Source: a virus (taxonomy: Duplodnaviria > Caudoviricetes). Taken from it: a stretch of 64,000 bases of DNA. The stretch lies in IMG/VR virus record IMGVR_UViG_3300044641_005618, one strand, 5' to 3'. Positions within the stretch are counted from its first letter, which is position 1. The number at the start of each line of letters is the position of its first letter. This document shows, in pieces, positions 26,053-63,272 of the stretch. Below the pieces are notes generated by a model that saw only the letters and a program-made list of their open reading frames with translations, had not been told where the DNA came from and did no database searches. Made by a program: the position numbers and the translations under genes.

Positions 26053-26109
26053 AGTGTTTCAGCGTGGGTTGGAGTGTAGGGTGCTGTTTTGGCCAGGAAA
26101 GTTGGCGGT

Positions 26110-26430
26110 GTAAGGGGGCCGAAACCCCCCGAGTTATGAGTCAGAGTGCGGTTGCTCAAACGGCAACGGCAATCCTCTCGAATTTGACGATGTTGTTAGC
26201 GTCTATTTTGTGCTTATGCAAGCGGCTTTCACTCAGGCGACATCTTTACCCTAGCGAGACCATGGCACCCCCTTGACTAGAGGTGGGAGTTTAACCCACA
26301 GTGACCCTGCCTTCTCAGTAAGTCGGAAGGTTGAAGAAGGGACGGTCACGTTCTCAAATGGAGGTGAGGGGATTCGAACCCCTGTATAGGGCACTATCTT
26401 CCAGAGCTACCCCTAGTTTAGAGTCGTATG
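26110..26430 (-). ncRNA. ssrA: Circularly permuted (two-piece) tmRNA
   Basis: T-arm and 3' acceptor CAGGGGTTCGAATCCCCT-CACCTCCA end at 26359; 86-nt intervening segment; 5' GGGGGTG starts 26272 (G3.U70); tag ANNIVKFERIAVAV* at 26200-26156. Confidence 0.9.
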
Positions 26431-26444
26431 GTAGGACTGTCCGC

Positions 26445-26642
26445 CTAATAAACTCCTATTCTTAGCCCACTCGTTTCAGGGGCGGGAGTTGACCACGAGC
26501 TTACCCCTATGCAAGCTCCGGACGGTAAATTGAGTTGTAGGTATTCTCCGCAGTGTGAGCCCTGGTAATCTTTAACCTCTAAGTAAGAGTAGCTCAGAAT
26601 GTCTCCGTTTTCTACCAACTTTTCTAGGTCTCCTTCAGTCAT
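26445..26642 (-). CDS. Hypothetical protein
   Basis: ORF track. Confidence 0.55.
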   Translation of the reverse strand: MTEGDLEKLVENGDILSYSYLEVKDYQGSHCGEYLQLNLPSGACIGVSSWSTPAPETSGLRIGVY

Positions 26643-41652: not shown

Positions 41653-41678
41653 AGGACTTCAGGGTTTGCACTAAAGTA

Positions 41679-41740
41679 AGTATACCGTTTCTGCGCCGCA
41701 GAAACAAGCCGGGAAACCGCCCCGGAGCAACCGGTTACCC
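41679..41740 (-). promoter_or_regulatory. Composite promoter copy with two upstream boxes
   Basis: tttctgc-gcc-gcagaaa dyad; boxes at 41712 and 41734. Confidence 0.85.
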
Positions 41741-41807
41741 TTCCTTGTCGGGGTGGCAAGGGCAACCCTTGAGGGTTGGTAACCCTACGTAACAGCACAG
41801 AAGGGAC

Positions 41808-45039: not shown

Positions 45040-45064
45040 TGTTTCGAGTGGCTCGACTGAATTA

Positions 45065-45130
45065 ATCATACCGTTTCTTCGGTGCAGAAACAAGCGGGGA
45101 AACCGTCCCAAATGAAACGGTTTACCGCCC
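45065..45130 (-). promoter_or_regulatory. Composite promoter copy with two upstream boxes
   Basis: Boxes at 45098 and 45120. Confidence 0.8.
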
Positions 45131-45148
45131 TCTCACCCCCGAAGCTAC

Positions 45149-52211: not shown

Positions 52212-52232
52212 GGGCGGGGCTTCAATGAAGTA

Positions 52233-52298
52233 ACTATACCGTTTCTGCGCTGCAGAAACAAGGGTGGAAACCGTCGGTTTAGGTTCGGTAAACCGCCC
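52233..52298 (-). promoter_or_regulatory. Composite promoter copy (reference example)
   Basis: -10 TATAGT 52238-52233; -35 TTGTTT 52261-52256; 17-bp spacer with dyad; boxes at 52266 and 52288. Confidence 0.85.
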
Positions 52299-52326
52299 AC
52301 TTTAGTGTAACCTTGCGACAGGGACC

Positions 52327-54014: not shown

Positions 54015-54256
54015 GTGCTTCGGGGTTGTTTCCCCCTGGTTCAACCTTAGCGGGTTTACGGGGGAGGTAACCCGTCTAAACCTCAAGGCTCCGTGAGCAA
54101 TTGCTCTATCTGAGCAAGGATTGACTCCGTGTAACCGGCGATGAAGCCGTAGGCTTGTTTGGTTCCCATCTGACCGGACAGTGCCTTGGACCGGGCTTCC
54201 TTCTCCGACTGAATGAGTCGGAGGATTTGTTGCTTGGTGGTTTCTTCCATGCACTT

Positions 54257-54321
54257 ACTATACCGTTTCTGCGGGGTAGAAACAAGCCGGGGAACCGGCC
54301 AAGGCTGGGCGGTTAACCGCC
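54257..54321 (-). promoter_or_regulatory. Composite promoter copy with two upstream boxes
   Basis: plus: actataccgtttctgcggggtagaaacaag..ggggaacc..gcggttaaccgcc. Confidence 0.8.
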
Positions 54322-54376
54322 TTCAACCGAACGGGAAATTACAAACTCTTTCAGCTTCTGCAGGACTCCTATGGCG

Positions 54377-55507: not shown

Positions 55508-55530
55508 GGTGCTTTGGTTCCAACCTAACT

Positions 55531-55596
55531 ACTATAGCGTTTCTGTCCCGCAGAAACAAGGGTGGAAACCGTCGGTGCAAGGGCGGTAAACCGCCC
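55531..55596 (-). promoter_or_regulatory. Composite promoter copy with two upstream boxes
   Basis: Boxes at 55564 and 55586. Confidence 0.85.
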
Positions 55597-55622
55597 TAGG
55601 GCGATTTGGTTAACCTTGCTAT

Positions 55623-56201: not shown

Positions 56202-56246
56202 TTTAGAGTACCGTGGTTTACGGGGGGGTTTGCGCTAGCAAAACAA

Positions 56247-56329
56247 TGGGTGTGGTAAGGATTCGAACCTACGTGTGCATAACAAACCGGGTTACAGCCG
56301 GTTCCCTTCGACCGCTCGGGCACACACCC
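56247..56329 (-). tRNA. tRNA-Tyr(GTA)
   Basis: Class II cloverleaf; loop CTGTAAC. Confidence 0.92.
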
Positions 56330-56362
56330 TTTTACTTTGAGCTGTGACTCAAAGGTTGTACA

Positions 56363-56411
56363 AGATGATTGTTTTTCTACCAAAAAGAAATTGTGAATCG
56401 CTGAATCATCT
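56363..56411 (-). repeat. 49-bp hairpin repeat, copy 1 of 3
   Basis: AGATGATT-CAGCGATTCACAA-TTTCT-TTTTGGT-AGAAA-AAC-AATCATCT. Confidence 0.9.
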
Positions 56412-56433
56412 TAGTTTTGCATTCGCAAAACAG

Positions 56434-56505
56434 TCCGAGAGGGGAATTTCGAAATCCCGACTTCTGGTTCCCAAAACCAGTGCTCTTCCTCTGAGCTACC
56501 CCCGG
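56434..56505 (-). tRNA. tRNA-Pro(TGG)
   Basis: Loop TTTGGGA; T-stem mismatch. Confidence 0.85.
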
Positions 56506-56565
56506 TTAGAGCCGTTTCGTCTTATATAGACCCGGACGGACAGACCGGGTGGGGTATTCCCCGAG

Positions 56566-56638
56566 TGGAACCATGGGGTTACGATCCCCATACCCCCTGC
56601 TTGCAAAACAGGTGCTCTACCAATTGAGCTATGGCCCC
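56566..56638 (-). tRNA. tRNA-Ala(TGC)
   Basis: G3.U70; atypical T-loop ATCGTAA. Confidence 0.88.
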
Positions 56639-56812
56639 TTGCGCTAAGCGTGTAACTTAGGTGTTTTACCCTACTAGGGGCAAATTGCTCTACCAGTTGC
56701 AAGTTTGTTAGTTTCCCTATGCTAAATCCAACTACTTTCAAGATCGGTGAATTTAGGGATTTTCGTCACTTGCTCGGCGAACCCAACCGCATAGGGCCCA
56801 TTGCGGTTGGTA

Positions 56813-56884
56813 TCGGAATGGCCGGGATCGAACCGACGACTTCTCGCCCCCCAGACGAGCGCTCTCCCTCTGAGCTACATTCCG
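56813..56884 (-). tRNA. tRNA-Pro(GGG)
   Basis: Loop CTGGGGG. Confidence 0.9.
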
Positions 56885-57003
56885 TTATAGACCGTTTACC
56901 CGCCACGGTCAAGGAGATTGACTTAACTCTTCAGTTAAAACTGTGAGCAGTGTCGGCACCACTTTCTAAGTCAGTTCCGAAGCTTGTAACCGTGGGTTAA
57001 ACA

Positions 57004-57053
57004 AGATGATTGTTTTTCTACCAAAAAGAAATTTGTGAATCGCTGAATCATCT
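57004..57053 (-). repeat. Hairpin repeat, copy 2 of 3 (one extra base)
   Basis: Matches 56363-56411. Confidence 0.9.
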
Positions 57054-57092
57054 TCGAAAATGCTATCGCATTTCTACCCTGTGAAGGGAAGA

Positions 57093-57164
57093 TCGGAAAT
57101 CTCGGCATCGAACCGAGTACTCACGGGCTTCAACCGTGCGCTTTACCCTTCAAGCTCATTTCCG
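57093..57164 (-). tRNA. tRNA-Phe(GAA)
   Basis: Loop TTGAAGC. Confidence 0.85.
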
Positions 57165-57223
57165 TTGTGACCAAGGTTCGTGCCCTGGAAAGTTGTTACC
57201 CTTGAGGGAACCCCGAAGGCAAA

Positions 57224-57294
57224 CTGGGCGCACGGGACTCGAACCCGCAACCTTCCCCATCTCAGAGGACGCTCTGCCATTGAGCTAGCACCCA
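57224..57294 (-). tRNA. Atypical tRNA, anticodon GAG (Leu) on a class I body
   Basis: 4-bp anticodon stem, loop CTGAGAT, 5-nt variable loop, U1-A72, G73. Confidence 0.6.
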
Positions 57295-57423
57295 AAACTC
57301 CCTAGCACAGTATCTGCAAATACCATTTTAAGGAGGGTTTACGCGATTGCAGTCGCTTAACCTAAGGAATCACACCTTTGTTACCATCAGTATCCCATGG
57401 CTTTGGGTTTTGCGTTAGCAAAA

Positions 57424-57495
57424 CGGTTCCAAGGGGATTCGAACCCCTGCTTCCTCTTAGACAGAGAGGTGTGTTAGCCGCTACACTATGAAACC
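57424..57495 (-). tRNA. tRNA-Asp(GTC)
   Basis: Loop CTGTCTA; G73. Confidence 0.9.
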
Positions 57496-57693
57496 TTTCG
57501 CCTTGGGTTTTCACCAAGGTCTTTCACCCCCTAAGGGGCTGCCAGGAAACCACTCCTGGACTTTTGCTGGGCTATAGCAAACACCTCGCCCACAGTGAGT
57601 TATCGGCTCATGTCAGGTTTCTCACTAACCTTGCACCCCGCTCTTTTTCGTACACGGGGTGTCCCTTAAACAGGGCACGCTGTATCTTTCTGG

Positions 57694-58443
57694 TCAGGGG
57701 GCCAACAGTGCCTTAGTAGAAAGCTTCCTGGAGTAAGGGGGTTCCCCCTTCCAGTGCTTTTTAAATACTCTTTTAACCTGAGTATGGGAAACTCCCCAAA
57801 GGTTAGATACCTTTTGTACCCAACCATACTTACTTAGGTCTATCCCGGCAGTTTTGACTTTTTCAAATCTTTCCTTTATAGTTTCATCGGACAGTCTGTG
57901 AGAACTATTAAGGGACCTCATTTTGTCTCTAAACTCAGGGTCTTTCCACTTTTCTGTCATTGTGTTGGACATCCTTTCCCTTTCGGCCCCGCAAGCGTAT
58001 CTCTTTAAATTAGCTTCAGACGCTCTTTTAAGCATGAATTCTTTATACTCCGGGTTTTGCCACTGGAGTTTTCTGGCTTTAGAAAGCATGGCTCTGTGTT
58101 TTTCGTCGGACCACCATAGTTTATTTAGCCTCTTCATGGTGTTAGATCTAACTGCCAAAGAAGTTACTGATCCGCAATTCTCGTTCAAGCATAGGGGATC
58201 GTTCAGGTGAGGAGAAATTAGCTCTTGCTCCCGCATATTGGCTGTTTTCCAACCCTTTTCAGAGTTGTCGAAAGTTTCTAGAATCTCTTTTATAGGCGTA
58301 TGAAGTTTCCAAAATTCCTTGTGAGTACATGGAGAACCCATATAGTACTCGTCAAATTTTTTCTCTTTATGTATACCCAAATACCATTCGGGTCTACCTT
58401 CAAAAGTTATCCGGTATAAATAGATCCGTGGCTCCATCTTCAA
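57694..58443 (-). mobile_element. Free-standing GIY-YIG (Seg-like) homing endonuclease gene in the tRNA cluster
   Basis: RIYLYRITF..WYLGIH..YMGS, REQEL, CLN: Seg-type GIY-YIG pattern. Confidence 0.75.
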
Positions 58444-58464
58444 AGCGCAATGCTAAGAAGTTTT

Positions 58465-58526
58465 ACCCGGACTACACCCGATGAGATACTTGAACTCTCG
58501 AGTCTGGTACACCAAGCTACCAGGGC
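58465..58526 (-). ncRNA. Candidate tRNA-elbow mimic (D-loop-like hairpin plus T-arm)
   Basis: CTGGTA-GCTTGGTG-TACCAG then GAGAG-TTCAAGT-ATCTC; occupies a tRNA slot in the operon. Confidence 0.35.
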
Positions 58527-58554
58527 ATTGTTTAAAGTTCTCGTTAAGAGAACA

Positions 58555-58636
58555 TACCGACCGAGAGACTCGAACTCTCACTCCTTTCGGAACCTGATTT
58601 TGAGTCAGGCGCGACTACCAATTCCGCCAGGCCGGC
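58555..58636 (-). tRNA. tRNA-Leu(CAA)
   Basis: Class II; loop CTCAAAA. Confidence 0.93.
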
Positions 58637-58757
58637 AATGTTTAAATTTTCAAGTTGCCCCCCCGCAAGAGCGGAAGCGAGGCGGAAGCCGAGCTTCCCA
58701 ACCACTCCTTTAGTATAACCGGTTTCTCCGTGGGGCGAAAGGGCGGTTTACCGTCCC
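58637..58757 (-). promoter_or_regulatory. tRNA operon promoter plus conserved leader with boxA-like GCAACTTGAAAA
   Basis: Leader similar to 60878-61005 and 62823-62941. Confidence 0.7.
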
Positions 58758-58771
58758 TTTGCTGGGGGCCT

Positions 58772-58966
58772 TCAGGTTAATACGGTGTCCCACACCGCCC
58801 CCGTAACTGCATCGACAATGTAAATGTCCTCACCAGTTGAGCGGGAAATGTCGCGAGCTGCGTTTATTGCCTCGCCGTAGCTTGGGTAGCTTTCACCCCC
58901 AACAGAATCCCCGGTCACGGCTTTCTTGAGATAAAAGGTCATTAGTTTGTTCCGGCTACAGTGCAA
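58772..58966 (-). CDS. Hypothetical protein
   Basis: ORF track; real start likely ATG near 58942. Confidence 0.5.
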   Translation of the reverse strand: MHCSRNKLMTFYLKKAVTGDSVGGESYPSYGEAINAARDISRSTGEDIYIVDAVTGAVWDTVLT

Positions 58967-59010
58967 TCATAGCGCCTTTCCTCGGAAAGGGAAAGGGCGG
59001 TTTACCGCCC
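58966..59010 (-). promoter_or_regulatory. Composite promoter copy
   Basis: ctttcc-tc-ggaaag dyad; gggcggtttaccgccc. Confidence 0.7.
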
Positions 59011-59211
59011 GTTTTCAGAAGGAAGCTTGTTACTACCGTCAAGAACTTTGAGTGCAAAGACCTCGGCAAGGGAATATTCATCAAGTCCGGATCGAACGAG
59101 GAAGCTTTTCCGGATCAACTGCTCGACAACCTCTTTAATGAAGGGTGTGTTGTAGTAGATCCCGTCTATGTTGACGGCTTTGTACGAGTGCCAAGATGGG
59201 CTGTTTTCCAT
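59002..59211 (-). CDS. Hypothetical protein
   Basis: ATG below promoter at 59218. Confidence 0.55.
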   Translation of the reverse strand: MENSPSWHSYKAVNIDGIYYNTPFIKEVVEQLIRKSFLVRSGLDEYSLAEVFALKVLDGSNKLPSENGR

Positions 59212-59217
59212 AAGGTA

Positions 59218-59260
59218 TGCATAGCGTTTTGCGAGGCAGACACAGGGGTCTAAACCGTCC
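59218..59260 (-). promoter_or_regulatory. Degenerate composite promoter copy
   Basis: plus: gcatagcgttttgcgaggcagacacaggggtctaaaccgtcc. Confidence 0.6.
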
Positions 59261-59277
59261 TTTTTCCGTGCAAACTA

Positions 59278-59348
59278 CACCGGAGAGAGGAATCGAACCC
59301 CCGTTTTCTGGTTTGGAAGCAGTAGTCTTACCACTAGACGACTCCGGC
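59278..59348 (-). tRNA. tRNA-Trp(CCA), weak anticodon stem
   Basis: Loop TTCCAAA; A.A and C.C mismatches; G73. Confidence 0.7.
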
Positions 59349-59379
59349 ATTTTACTTAAGTTTTCTCGTGAGAGAAAAG

Positions 59380-59461
59380 AGCGGGTAACAGGATTTGAAC
59401 CTGCGTGAACTATTCGCCTCTTGTTTGGAAAACAAGTGCTCTACCGCTGAGCTATACCCGC
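59380..59461 (-). tRNA. tRNA-Gly(TCC) with long variable arm
   Basis: GCGGGTA/TACCCGC-U73; loop TTTCCAA; 15-nt extra arm AGGCGAATAGTTCAC. Confidence 0.8.
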
Positions 59462-59492
59462 ATTTTACTTGAGTTTTCTCGTGAGAGAAAAG

Positions 59493-59565
59493 AGCTGTCG
59501 ACGTGACTCGAACACGCGACTTTCTACTTGGAAGGAAGACACTCTACCGACTGAGTTACGACCGC
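59493..59565 (-). tRNA. tRNA-Gly(TCC)
   Basis: Loop CTTCCAA; G3.A70 mismatch. Confidence 0.8.
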
Positions 59566-59600
59566 ATTTTGCTTTAGTGTAATTTCGCGTAAGCGAAAAG

Positions 59601-59673
59601 GGTGATAGACGGGACTCGAACCCGCTAATTACTGGTTCACAACCAGTTGCCTAGCCCTTTGGCTTCTACCACC
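59601..59673 (-). tRNA. tRNA-His(GTG)
   Basis: Encoded G-1 and C73; loop TTGTGAA. Confidence 0.92.
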
Positions 59674-59704
59674 ATTGTAGGGGAGTTTCTGACTAATTTA
59701 AGCT

Positions 59705-59753
59705 AGATGATTGTTTTTCTACCAAAAAGAAATTGTGAATCGCTGAATCATCT
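59705..59753 (-). repeat. 49-bp hairpin repeat, copy 3 of 3
   Basis: Identical to 56363-56411. Confidence 0.9.
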
Positions 59754-59775
59754 AAGTTTTGCAAAAGCAAAACAA

Positions 59776-59849
59776 TGGCGGACCGGGGAATTGAACCCCT
59801 GTTCCTCTGGGTTATGGGCCCAGCGTGACTACCGTGACACTCGTCCGCG
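59776..59849 (-). tRNA. Initiator-type tRNA-fMet(CAT)
   Basis: 1:72 mismatch (C.C), three G-C pairs in anticodon stem, loop CCCATAA. Confidence 0.8.
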
Positions 59850-60045: not shown

Positions 60046-60164
60046 GGAGCAAGGTTGGACTTGAACCAACGGCTTGCTTTGCCCTCCAGCGTTACGGTCC
60101 TTTACCGAGGCTTTCCTTAGAAAGCCTGAGGAGGTTGCCGCTCTACCAACTGAGCTACTTGCTC
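60046..60164 (-). ncRNA. tRNA-framed RNA A (119 nt, 69-nt multi-hairpin in place of anticodon arm)
   Basis: Acceptor GAGCAAG/CTTGCTC, canonical D-arm, T-arm GTTGG-TTCAAGT-CCAAC. Confidence 0.75.
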
Positions 60165-60441: not shown

Positions 60442-60529
60442 CGGAGAGAACAGGAATCGAACCTGCGCAGGGGGTCTCCCCCCTGTAACCGTTTTCAAGA
60501 CGGTCTCCTCGTCCAGCCGGACTCTCTCC
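60442..60529 (-). tRNA. tRNA-Ser(TGA)
   Basis: Class II; loop CTTGAAA. Confidence 0.92.
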
Positions 60530-60579
60530 AATTACCATAACACGGTAAGTTTGTAGCTAGAAAACCGAAAGGTTTTCAA

Positions 60580-60877: not shown

Positions 60878-61005
60878 CCGTATTAAATTTTCAAGTTGCC
60901 TTTTGCTTTCGCAAAAGCGGGGAGGAGGTGAGGGCGAAGCCCTCTCTCAACCACCCTTTTAGTATAGGGTTTCTGCGGGGCAGAAACAAGGACGGGAAAC
61001 CGCCG
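60878..61005 (-). promoter_or_regulatory. tRNA operon promoter plus boxA-like leader
   Basis: TTGTTT-17-TATACT with dyad; GCAACTTGAAAA at 60899-60888. Confidence 0.75.
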
Positions 61006-62822: not shown

Positions 62823-62941
62823 TTGGTATTAAGTTTTCGAGGTGCCGTCCGCAAGAGCGGGAGCGAGGAGGAAGCCGAGCTTCCCAACCACCCCTTTAGT
62901 ATAGGGTTTTTCACCGGGGAAGTAAAGCGGGGAAACCGCCC
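62823..62941 (-). promoter_or_regulatory. tRNA operon promoter plus boxA-like leader
   Basis: TATACT -10; GGAAGC-TCG-GCTTCC hairpin; GCACCTCGAAAA. Confidence 0.7.
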
Positions 62942-63203: not shown

Positions 63204-63228
63204 GGCGTTGAGGGGTTTGACTGTTGTG

Positions 63229-63272
63229 ACTATAGCGGTTTTCACCGGGGAAGTAAAGCGGGGAAACCGCCC
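63229..63272 (-). promoter_or_regulatory. Composite promoter copy, near-identical to 62900-62941
   Basis: ttttcaccggggaagtaaagcggggaaaccgccc shared. Confidence 0.75.

Follow-up and report, generated by a model that had tools for sequence, protein, structure and literature searches.

Structured RNA repeats in phage tRNA arrays as candidate Y-RNA-like ligands of a DUF2828/DUF7788 protein with a predicted Ro60-like fold

Three near-identical hairpin elements of 49 or 50 nucleotides (nt) lie among the tRNA genes of a 64,000-nt stretch of viral DNA (Duplodnaviria, Caudoviricetes; IMG/VR virus record IMGVR_UViG_3300044641_005618), referred to here at its full length as the window. These repeats are genuine, and selection acts on their RNA structure as well as their sequence. 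The family that they form part of has at least 131 distinct free-standing copies in uncultured cyanophage-like contigs; the same motif recurs in circularly permuted form inside tRNA-shaped genes, and it is linked to a gene encoding a protein with the domains DUF2828 and DUF7788. On balance, and by analogy with known systems, the evidence tips toward the reading that the elements are small Y-RNA-like ligands that would be bound by a phage Ro60-like protein. The proposal is that the module works like a Y RNA; membership in the YrlA family is not claimed.

An exact search of the window placed the 49-mer AGATGATTCAGCGATTCACAATTTCTTTTTGGTAGAAAAACAATCATCT at 56363-56411 and 59705-59753, and positions 57004-57053 hold a 50-nt version with one added A before the inner hairpin; 100 dinucleotide shuffles gave zero matches to the 49-mer. 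These coordinates bear out the initial annotation, which was made from the sequence alone and had reported three near-identical 49/50-nt repeats without stating a strand. All three lie on the minus strand, which is the strand of all 34 tRNA and transfer-messenger RNA (tmRNA) genes of the window (33 tRNA genes and a permuted tmRNA gene; Rfam adds a few tRNAs that ARAGORN misses). Whether related phages share the element, a question raised by the annotation, was answered by its presence in the nearest relative identified, a 277-kb phage record (G001) that is 97-99% identical in the window region, and in many other viral contigs. The pattern AGATGATTCAGC...AATCATCT alone retrieved 43 viral contigs, while a search of bacterial and archaeal genomes (about 600 Gb) with the same pattern gave 24 matches, about the number expected by chance, none of them near a tRNA or DUF2828. 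Two relaxed patterns, with each stem half loosened, returned mostly chance matches, yet compensatory stem variants emerged among them (AGAUGGUU/AACCAUCU, AGAUAGUU/AACUAUCU, and AGGUAAUU/AAUUACCU). A search with a covariance model of the motif (R1) identified about 118 copies at 100 loci, with 3 in the window and up to 6 per array elsewhere. Permissive Rfam scans of the motif (E ≤ 10) returned no family, ribozyme, or small-RNA match, so that it is not an Rfam motif, as the annotation had supposed.

The copies showed covariation in both the terminal and the inner helix. In the R1 set, the terminal helix was 94% paired, 7 of 10 pairs varied on both sides, and the covariation score was 0.286 versus 0.090 in shuffles; none of 500 shuffles reached the score, and slid controls collapsed. 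A second set, anchored on the protein gene described below, agreed with the first, the ranges over both sets being 93-94% paired, 6-7 of 10 pairs, and 0.29-0.36 versus 0.09-0.12. Copy number, genomic context, and covariation, which the annotation had named as checks, all support a family: at least 131 distinct copies, a bias to the tRNA strand, and a covarying stem.

Conservation was counted in 124 distinct parsed copies. The helix tip AGAU/AUCU occurred in 108, and the pair outside the tip covaried (U:A, A:U, and G:C); the 3' base next after the helix (+2) was G in every copy. Four nucleotides past the tip lies an unpaired heptamer, CAGCAAU or CAGCGAU (108 copies), and the A-rich return strand was 76% A. 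The inner hairpin was retained in 123 copies, with an unconstrained loop of 3-10 nt. All 98 scorable copies lay on the tRNA strand, and in most phages the element begins 1-2 nt past a tRNA without an encoded CCA, with the next tRNA 6-8 nt on. A pseudoknot between the hairpin loop and CAGCAAU was examined by eye and discarded as not above chance. In some free-type copies (L032:4332-4392, L027:5559-5619, and L043:2006-2090), the inner hairpin is T-arm-like (GGUUCGAUUCC), which hints that module and tRNA pieces recombine.

The motif is tightly coupled to the DUF2828 gene. DUF2828 scored above the cut-off in all five motif-bearing phage records and in none of 14 control genomes, and it always lay amid motif copies. 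The gene was within about 5 kb at 26 of 44 motif loci, compared with 3 of 218 loci from the loose pattern, each of the 3 a true carrier, and none of the 24 chance matches in genomes. Twelve arrays had the layout tRNA-Val, motif, gene, motif, tRNA-like gene, motif, tRNA-like gene, motif. A reciprocal test from close protein homologues identified free copies at 47 of 49 loci (about three per locus) and embedded copies at 42 of the 49, with all 146 motif copies on the strand of the gene. A second covariance model (R2), built solely from these protein-anchored loci, recovered all three window copies at about 60 bits, found copies beside a 46%-identity homologue, just ahead of its start codon, and gave weak same-strand matches about 300 nt past the gene at four homologues of 41-43% identity. 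Among AT-rich phages there are several in which a motif copy abuts the ribosome-binding site of the gene: GGAG begins with the invariant G, and the AUG follows 8-9 nt on. This arrangement suggests autoregulation of the DUF2828 gene.

The encoded protein (for example, L307:802-2280, minus strand) consists of DUF2828 plus DUF7788, is about 490 amino acids long, and is 62% identical between GC-rich and AT-rich phages. Its DVSGSM MIDAS signature is invariant. With an AlphaFold2 model (pLDDT 68) as query, the top 13 PDB matches were all full-length Ro60/TROVE proteins, from phage phiLo, Deinococcus, Xenopus, and human, with E values of 4e-8 to 6e-4 and TM-scores of 0.34-0.42. The protein is therefore predicted to have a Ro60-like fold. 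In the lineage of the window, the gene is encoded about 10-14 kb before the window. An RNA ligase of 359 amino acids with a PHA02142 OB-fold and an RNA_ligase domain (PF09414) is encoded at L294:1462-2541 (minus strand), corresponding to about 71.7-72.8 kb in G001 and lying about 5 kb before the window; a PF09414 ligase was present in four of the five motif-bearing records. A group I intron (RF00028, 53.6 bits) was found near the DUF2828 locus of a related phage contig (L054:843-1040, minus strand).

The second form of the motif is embedded in tRNA-shaped genes. The Rfam tRNA model calls tRNAs of 112-120 nt adjoining free elements, and the roughly 40 extra nt are the motif, circularly permuted: an A-rich strand, (N)AUCU, a 5- to 6-nt loop starting N-G, AGAU(N), and, 4-5 nt later, CAGCAAU. 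The spacing from AGAU to CAGCAAU is equal in the embedded and free forms; the embedded closing pair covaries likewise (A:U in 16, U:A in 9, and G:C in 1), and the tip is invariant as in the free form. The insert site is the 5' strand of the anticodon stem. When the insert was removed from the gene of L024, the sequence ACG^GC-AUUGGGA-GCCGU, a Pro anticodon arm, remained. G001 carries two embedded genes, near 59.9 and 60.8 kb, one of which is followed by a fourth free copy, and the window phage's own lineage therefore has both forms. The other G001 embedded gene, minus a 41-nt block, becomes a canonical tRNA-Lys(UUU) with the arm CG^CCU-CUUUUAA-AGGCG. Removal restored a canonical tRNA in several genes, and others showed 6- or 8-nt loops, C37, or A34. 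Insert boundaries were set from the Rfam tRNA alignment and by hand, as brute-force deletion with ARAGORN was too permissive to inform.

Two further observations concern tRNA-shaped genes. One tRNA body (acceptor of the GGGGAAG type, anticodon stem ACGGC/GCCGU) bears Pro, Thr, Asn, or Val anticodons in related phages (L024, L011, L013, L017, and L048); either the anticodon has been remoulded or decoding does not constrain the loop. In the window, positions 60046-60164 (minus strand) hold a 119-nt tRNA-framed gene (Rfam tRNA, 45 bits) with a 46-nt structured insertion in the anticodon arm; this insertion is unrelated to the CAGCAAU motif, and no deletion yields a canonical anticodon loop.

The three window copies have the anatomy of the family. 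Copy 1 (56363-56411, minus strand; R1, 61.2 bits; R2, 61.1 bits, E = 4e-10) reads, 5' to 3', as the 5' strand of the outer stem (AGAUGAUU, 56411-56404), CAGCGAU (56403-56397), the inner hairpin UUUCU/UUUUGGU/AGAAA (56390-56374), the A-rich AAC (56373-56371), and the 3' strand of the stem (AAUCAUCU, 56370-56363), all on the minus strand; outside these parts are a flanking pair, A(56412):U(56362), and the invariant G at 56361. Copy 2 (57004-57053, minus strand, 50 nt) scored 61.5 bits with R1 and 59.7 bits with R2, and copy 3 (59705-59753, minus strand, 49 nt; repeat family D19), which has the same sequence as copy 1, scored 64.4 and 60.9 bits. The closing stem, annotated as 8 bp, exists and is in fact 9 bp long, since the flanking -1/+1 bases pair too. 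The annotated inner stem of 5 bp with a 7-nt loop fared less evenly. RNAfold gives the window copies weak folds (total energy, -8.7 to -10.4 kcal/mol; z, -1.6 to -2.2), the inner stem is thermodynamically marginal, and the program picks a 3- to 4-bp alternative; the stem is backed by the family-wide covariation, that is, by comparative support, and the loop length of 7 nt does not hold across the family. The annotation had excluded a CRISPR array, rightly: the copies are spaced by 641 and 2,701 nt with tRNAs between them, and no Rfam CRISPR direct repeat matched.

Each window copy follows a tRNA gene, on the same minus strand, at the distance of 20-40 nt that had been annotated for Pro, Phe, and fMet tRNAs. 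Copy 1 lies 21 nt behind tRNA-Pro(UGG) (56433-56505), with tRNA-Tyr (56247-56329) as its downstream neighbor; copy 2 lies 39 nt behind tRNA-Phe(GAA) (57093-57164), with tRNA-Pro(GGG) (56813-56884) downstream; and copy 3 lies 22 nt behind an initiator-like tRNA-Met(CAU) (59776-59849), with tRNA-His (59600-59672) downstream. The initiator-like tRNA scored 31.2 bits with the Rfam tRNA model and had no ARAGORN call; three G-C pairs close its anticodon stem, and it has a C1xC72 mismatch. Each upstream spacer carries an additional 7-bp tetraloop hairpin on the minus strand, read from the sequence and missing from the initial annotation: GUUUUGC-GAAU-GCAAAAC between tRNA-Pro and copy 1 (56414-56431; repeat family D19), GAAAUGC-GAUA-GCAUUUUC between tRNA-Phe and copy 2 (57056-57074), and GUUUUGC-UUUU-GCAAAAC between the initiator-like tRNA and copy 3 (59756-59773). 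Hairpins of this type (consensus GUUUUGC-NNNN-GCAAAAC, minus strand) were also found at 56228-56246 and 57405-57423; in the window lineage they sit right behind several tRNA 3' ends, with or without the motif, and they may be 3'-trailer or processing hairpins. Domain searches of the open reading frames (ORFs) within the window tRNA array gave no useful match.

The identity of copies 1 and 3 was examined against G001. The G001 orthologue of copy 3 keeps the termini and differs in the interior (UCC-UUCGUUAUU-GGA) and in the spacer hairpin, and its flanking tRNAs are identical. The match between copies 1 and 3 is therefore the result of recent gene conversion over a tract of about 70 nt that includes the upstream small hairpin, and it is no evidence for transposition. 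G001 also has a 146-bp insertion (G001:133890-134037, at about 56697 of the window) with an extra tRNA-Ile(UAU) that is missing from the window; it lies between tRNA-Ala and tRNA-Pro(GGG) and represents an indel of a whole tRNA gene at 97-99% identity.

On the reading that we favor, the module comprises a terminal helix with the AGAU/AUCU tip and the following G, the unpaired CAGCAAU, a variable hairpin, and the A-rich return strand. Free copies would be cotranscribed with the tRNAs and released by ordinary tRNA end processing, with RNase Z acting on the upstream side and RNase P on the downstream side; these enzymes would free the element because in most phages it starts 1-2 nt after one tRNA and ends 6-8 nt before the next. 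The initial annotation suggested that a small RNA is processed from the tRNA polycistron; the co-orientation of all 98 scorable copies and the tRNA-abutting ends agree with this, the release itself being a proposed step. The freed RNAs would then serve as ligands of the DUF2828-DUF7788 protein (helical-repeat and vWA/MIDAS domains) and, by analogy with Ro60 and Y RNAs, might gate or regulate a protein ring. The tRNA-shaped RNAs with the module in the anticodon stem could tether the protein to tRNA-handling enzymes, and in the AT-rich relatives the copy that abuts the Shine-Dalgarno sequence could act as an autoregulatory operator.

Several points weigh against the Y-RNA-like reading. Co-location indicates functional coupling without showing which molecule binds the RNA, and the three window copies do not adjoin the DUF2828 gene but lie about 70 kb from it. 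The Pfam TROVE model did not match the DUF2828/DUF7788 protein, and the structural match to Ro60 has modest TM-scores (0.34-0.42) on a mid-confidence model. The bulge motif CAGCAAU/CAGCGAU is unlike the GNCGAA(N)G/CGAA of known Y RNAs; the Rfam YrlA model (RF02553) gave 17.1 bits versus a threshold of 69 on an embedded/free pair and no match to the window copies at E ≤ 10. The RNA, about 50 nt long, is to our knowledge smaller than any described Y RNA. Finally, many embedded genes, with the insert taken out, still show a canonical anticodon arm (Lys-UUU, Pro-UGG, Thr-UGU, Asn-GUU, and Val-UAC), a finding that an intron reading explains as well.

That alternative takes the motif as an RNA-processing or splicing signal that marks RNA for excision. 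The embedded form would be a protein-dependent intervening sequence of about 40 nt, a nick in the duplex would be sealed by a phage Rnl2-type RNA ligase, and the free copies would be excised spacers or punctuation. Consistent with this, removal of 38-48 nt leaves perfect anticodon arms (Pro in L024 and Lys-UUU in G001, with Thr, Asn, and Val by hand), the independence of the motif from connectivity recalls archaeal bulge-helix-bulge sites, the gene and the tRNA-like genes are flanked by free copies at each junction, a PF09414 RNA ligase is present in four of the five records, and G001 encodes a PHA02142-OB plus RNA_ligase protein. The splicing endonuclease (PF01974) and RtcB (PF01139) were, however, absent from all five records, and searches of the viral and metagenome collections found neither an intron-less allele nor a spliced junction: when the interrupted tRNAs were sought in uninterrupted form, just an unrelated tRNA-His was returned, and the predicted spliced junction of the G001 Lys-UUU gene (GGTAGAGCACG joined to CCTCTTTTAAAGGCG) was absent from both. 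The interrupted genes are redundant with normal tRNAs of the same array (L007; Lys-UUU in the window), the distance from the motif to the putative splice site varies from 4 to 11 nt, and ordinary tRNA junctions in the same arrays do without such a spacer. The insert, at 38-48 nt and with no RF00028 match, is not of the group I class. Anticodon loops drift, with Pro, Thr, Asn, and Val on the same body and some loops of 6 or 8 nt or with C37 or A34. Because of this drift and the DUF2828 linkage, the splicing reading ranks below the Y-RNA-like one, and we regard it as unlikely. More doubtful is a combination of the two readings, with the motif as the docking site of a phage ribonucleoprotein machine in which the DUF2828 protein directs removal of the roughly 40-nt insert, the ligase seals the product, and the free copies are regulators or competitors.

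A purely cis-acting element (translational operator, stability element, or processing site) read by another factor, with the DUF2828 gene as a regulated neighbor, would account for the copies that end 5-6 nt before the start of the tblastn match, with the invariant G in GGAG and the AUG 8-9 nt on, and for other copies that begin 10-100 nt past the stop codon; the window copies and many others lie between tRNAs and far from ORFs, and an mRNA operator hardly explains the embedded form in tRNA-shaped RNAs; we consider this account improbable. Less credible still is the anticodon-stem-loop decoy or sponge for a host anticodon nuclease that the initial annotation had suggested. In the window copies, a 5-bp stem does carry a 7-nt loop whose second base is U and whose sixth is G, the equivalent hairpin in the embedded form is a real anticodon arm, and the genome encodes RNA-repair enzymes. 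The loop is nevertheless the least conserved part, at 3-10 nt; anticodon-arm geometry (5-bp stem, 7-nt loop, U33, and purine 37) occurred in just 22 of the 124 copies, too few for a mimic; and between close relatives, orthologous copies share the stem and CAGCAAU but not the loop. The conserved parts lie outside the hairpin. A mini mobile element, also raised by the annotation, would be a selfish palindromic DNA element (MITE- or RPE-like) tolerated between and in tRNA genes. The 8-bp terminal inverted repeats, the copies inside genes, and the near identity of the three window copies would suit it. Target-site duplications are absent, orientation is single (98 of 98 and 146 of 146), the copies hold orthologous positions across diverged phages with no empty sites found, intragenomic copies have diverged with pairing kept by compensatory change, bacterial genomes lack the element beyond chance, and the identity within the window is attributed to gene conversion; we hold this origin to be very unlikely.

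The phages that carry the motif have a cyanobacterial-type tmRNA and the wcaG RNA motif and are therefore probably cyanophages. In GenBank phages, no relative of the window tRNA region was found beyond a 59-bp stretch, and none was found for an AT-rich array. The window itself contains, at 26065-26448 (minus strand), a permuted tmRNA gene of the two-piece type. A gene at 60442-60530 (minus strand) matched tRNA-Sec best in Rfam (53 bits) versus tRNA-Ser(UGA) by ARAGORN. In addition, a repeated module lies upstream of ORFs at 41670-41745, 45056-45131, 52224-52299, 54248-54323, 55522-55597, 60959-61004, 62896-62941, and 63227-63272. Read on the gene strand, the module has one or two GC-rich hairpins (GGGCGGUUUCCCGCCC type), followed by a GUUUCUGC-N4-GCAGAAAC hairpin and then GGTATAGT, an arrangement that resembles a terminator joined to a promoter or operator specific to the phage.

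Ro60/Y RNA particles are conserved from bacteria to humans, and their RNA recognition and phage roles are known from very few cases. The motif is a structured RNA module new to Rfam, with 131 distinct free-standing copies plus the embedded ones, and it is coupled to a protein family whose more than 7,600 members carry only DUF annotations. DUF2828/DUF7788 thereby gains a concrete candidate RNA ligand, which would be the smallest Y-RNA-like module so far for structural work. The motif also accounts for odd "tRNAs with inserts" in cyanophage tRNA arrays and suggests that the tRNA arrays of phages serve as operons for RNA-protein machines besides decoding. If the splicing reading were true, the inserts would be a new kind of tRNA intron; on the combined reading, they would be a class of intervening sequences in tRNAs that are removed under the guidance of a protein, of which we know no example from bacteria or their viruses.

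Stable non-tRNA RNAs in phage tRNA operons include the species 1 and 2 RNAs of T4 and RNA1 of T5, which are tRNA-framed, 100-140 nt long, and freed by tRNA-processing enzymes. The motif, compared by description, resembles them in being a non-tRNA RNA inside a phage tRNA operon; we know of no link of the T4 and T5 RNAs to a Ro60-like protein. The archaeal bulge-helix-bulge is one local motif with varied connectivity, in tRNA introns and in permuted and split tRNAs, and the present motif likewise occurs inside anticodon stems at noncanonical positions and between genes. It differs in that no such geometry is evident, its conserved nucleotides lie in junction strands, and neither a splicing endonuclease nor RtcB is encoded. 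Translational operators of RNA-binding proteins, such as the hairpin of the MS2 coat protein and the operators of T4 RegA, offer a third parallel, since in some relatives a copy of the presumed ligand overlaps the ribosome-binding site of the protein's own gene, where it may regulate it; this likeness is limited to gene-proximal copies and excludes the three window copies.

Phage and bacterial Y RNAs are encoded next to Ro60 genes and have a terminal 5'-3' stem, a motif-bearing internal bulge, and a second stem (PMC12135203; PMC4201824). Their published conserved motif is of the GNCGAA(N)G/CGAA type (PMC4201824; PMC12135203), bacterial YrlA has a tRNA-like domain besides (Chen et al. 2014, PMC4201824), and Thermus phage phiLo encodes Yrl1 and Yrl2 (PMC12135203). 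The present motif differs from these RNAs in having CAGCAAU, the AGAU/AUCU tip, and the 3' G in place of GNCGAA(N)G/CGAA, in its length of about 50 nt versus 80-130 nt, and in a partner annotated solely as DUF2828/DUF7788, without a Pfam TROVE match. The tRNA-like partners differ as well: those described here keep the usual tRNA topology, and the handle is a capped branch of their anticodon stem; in YrlA, the ends lie in the handle and the acceptor is capped. Like the Y RNAs (YrlA/YrlB and Yrl1/Yrl2), the motif is a putative small noncoding RNA encoded, here at the family level, beside the gene for a ring-shaped protein of helical-repeat and vWA domains; its two stems, the first of them terminal, enclose a large internal bulge that holds a short conserved motif; and it shares with them the associated tRNA-like modules, the occurrence in phages, and the presence of several copies per locus.

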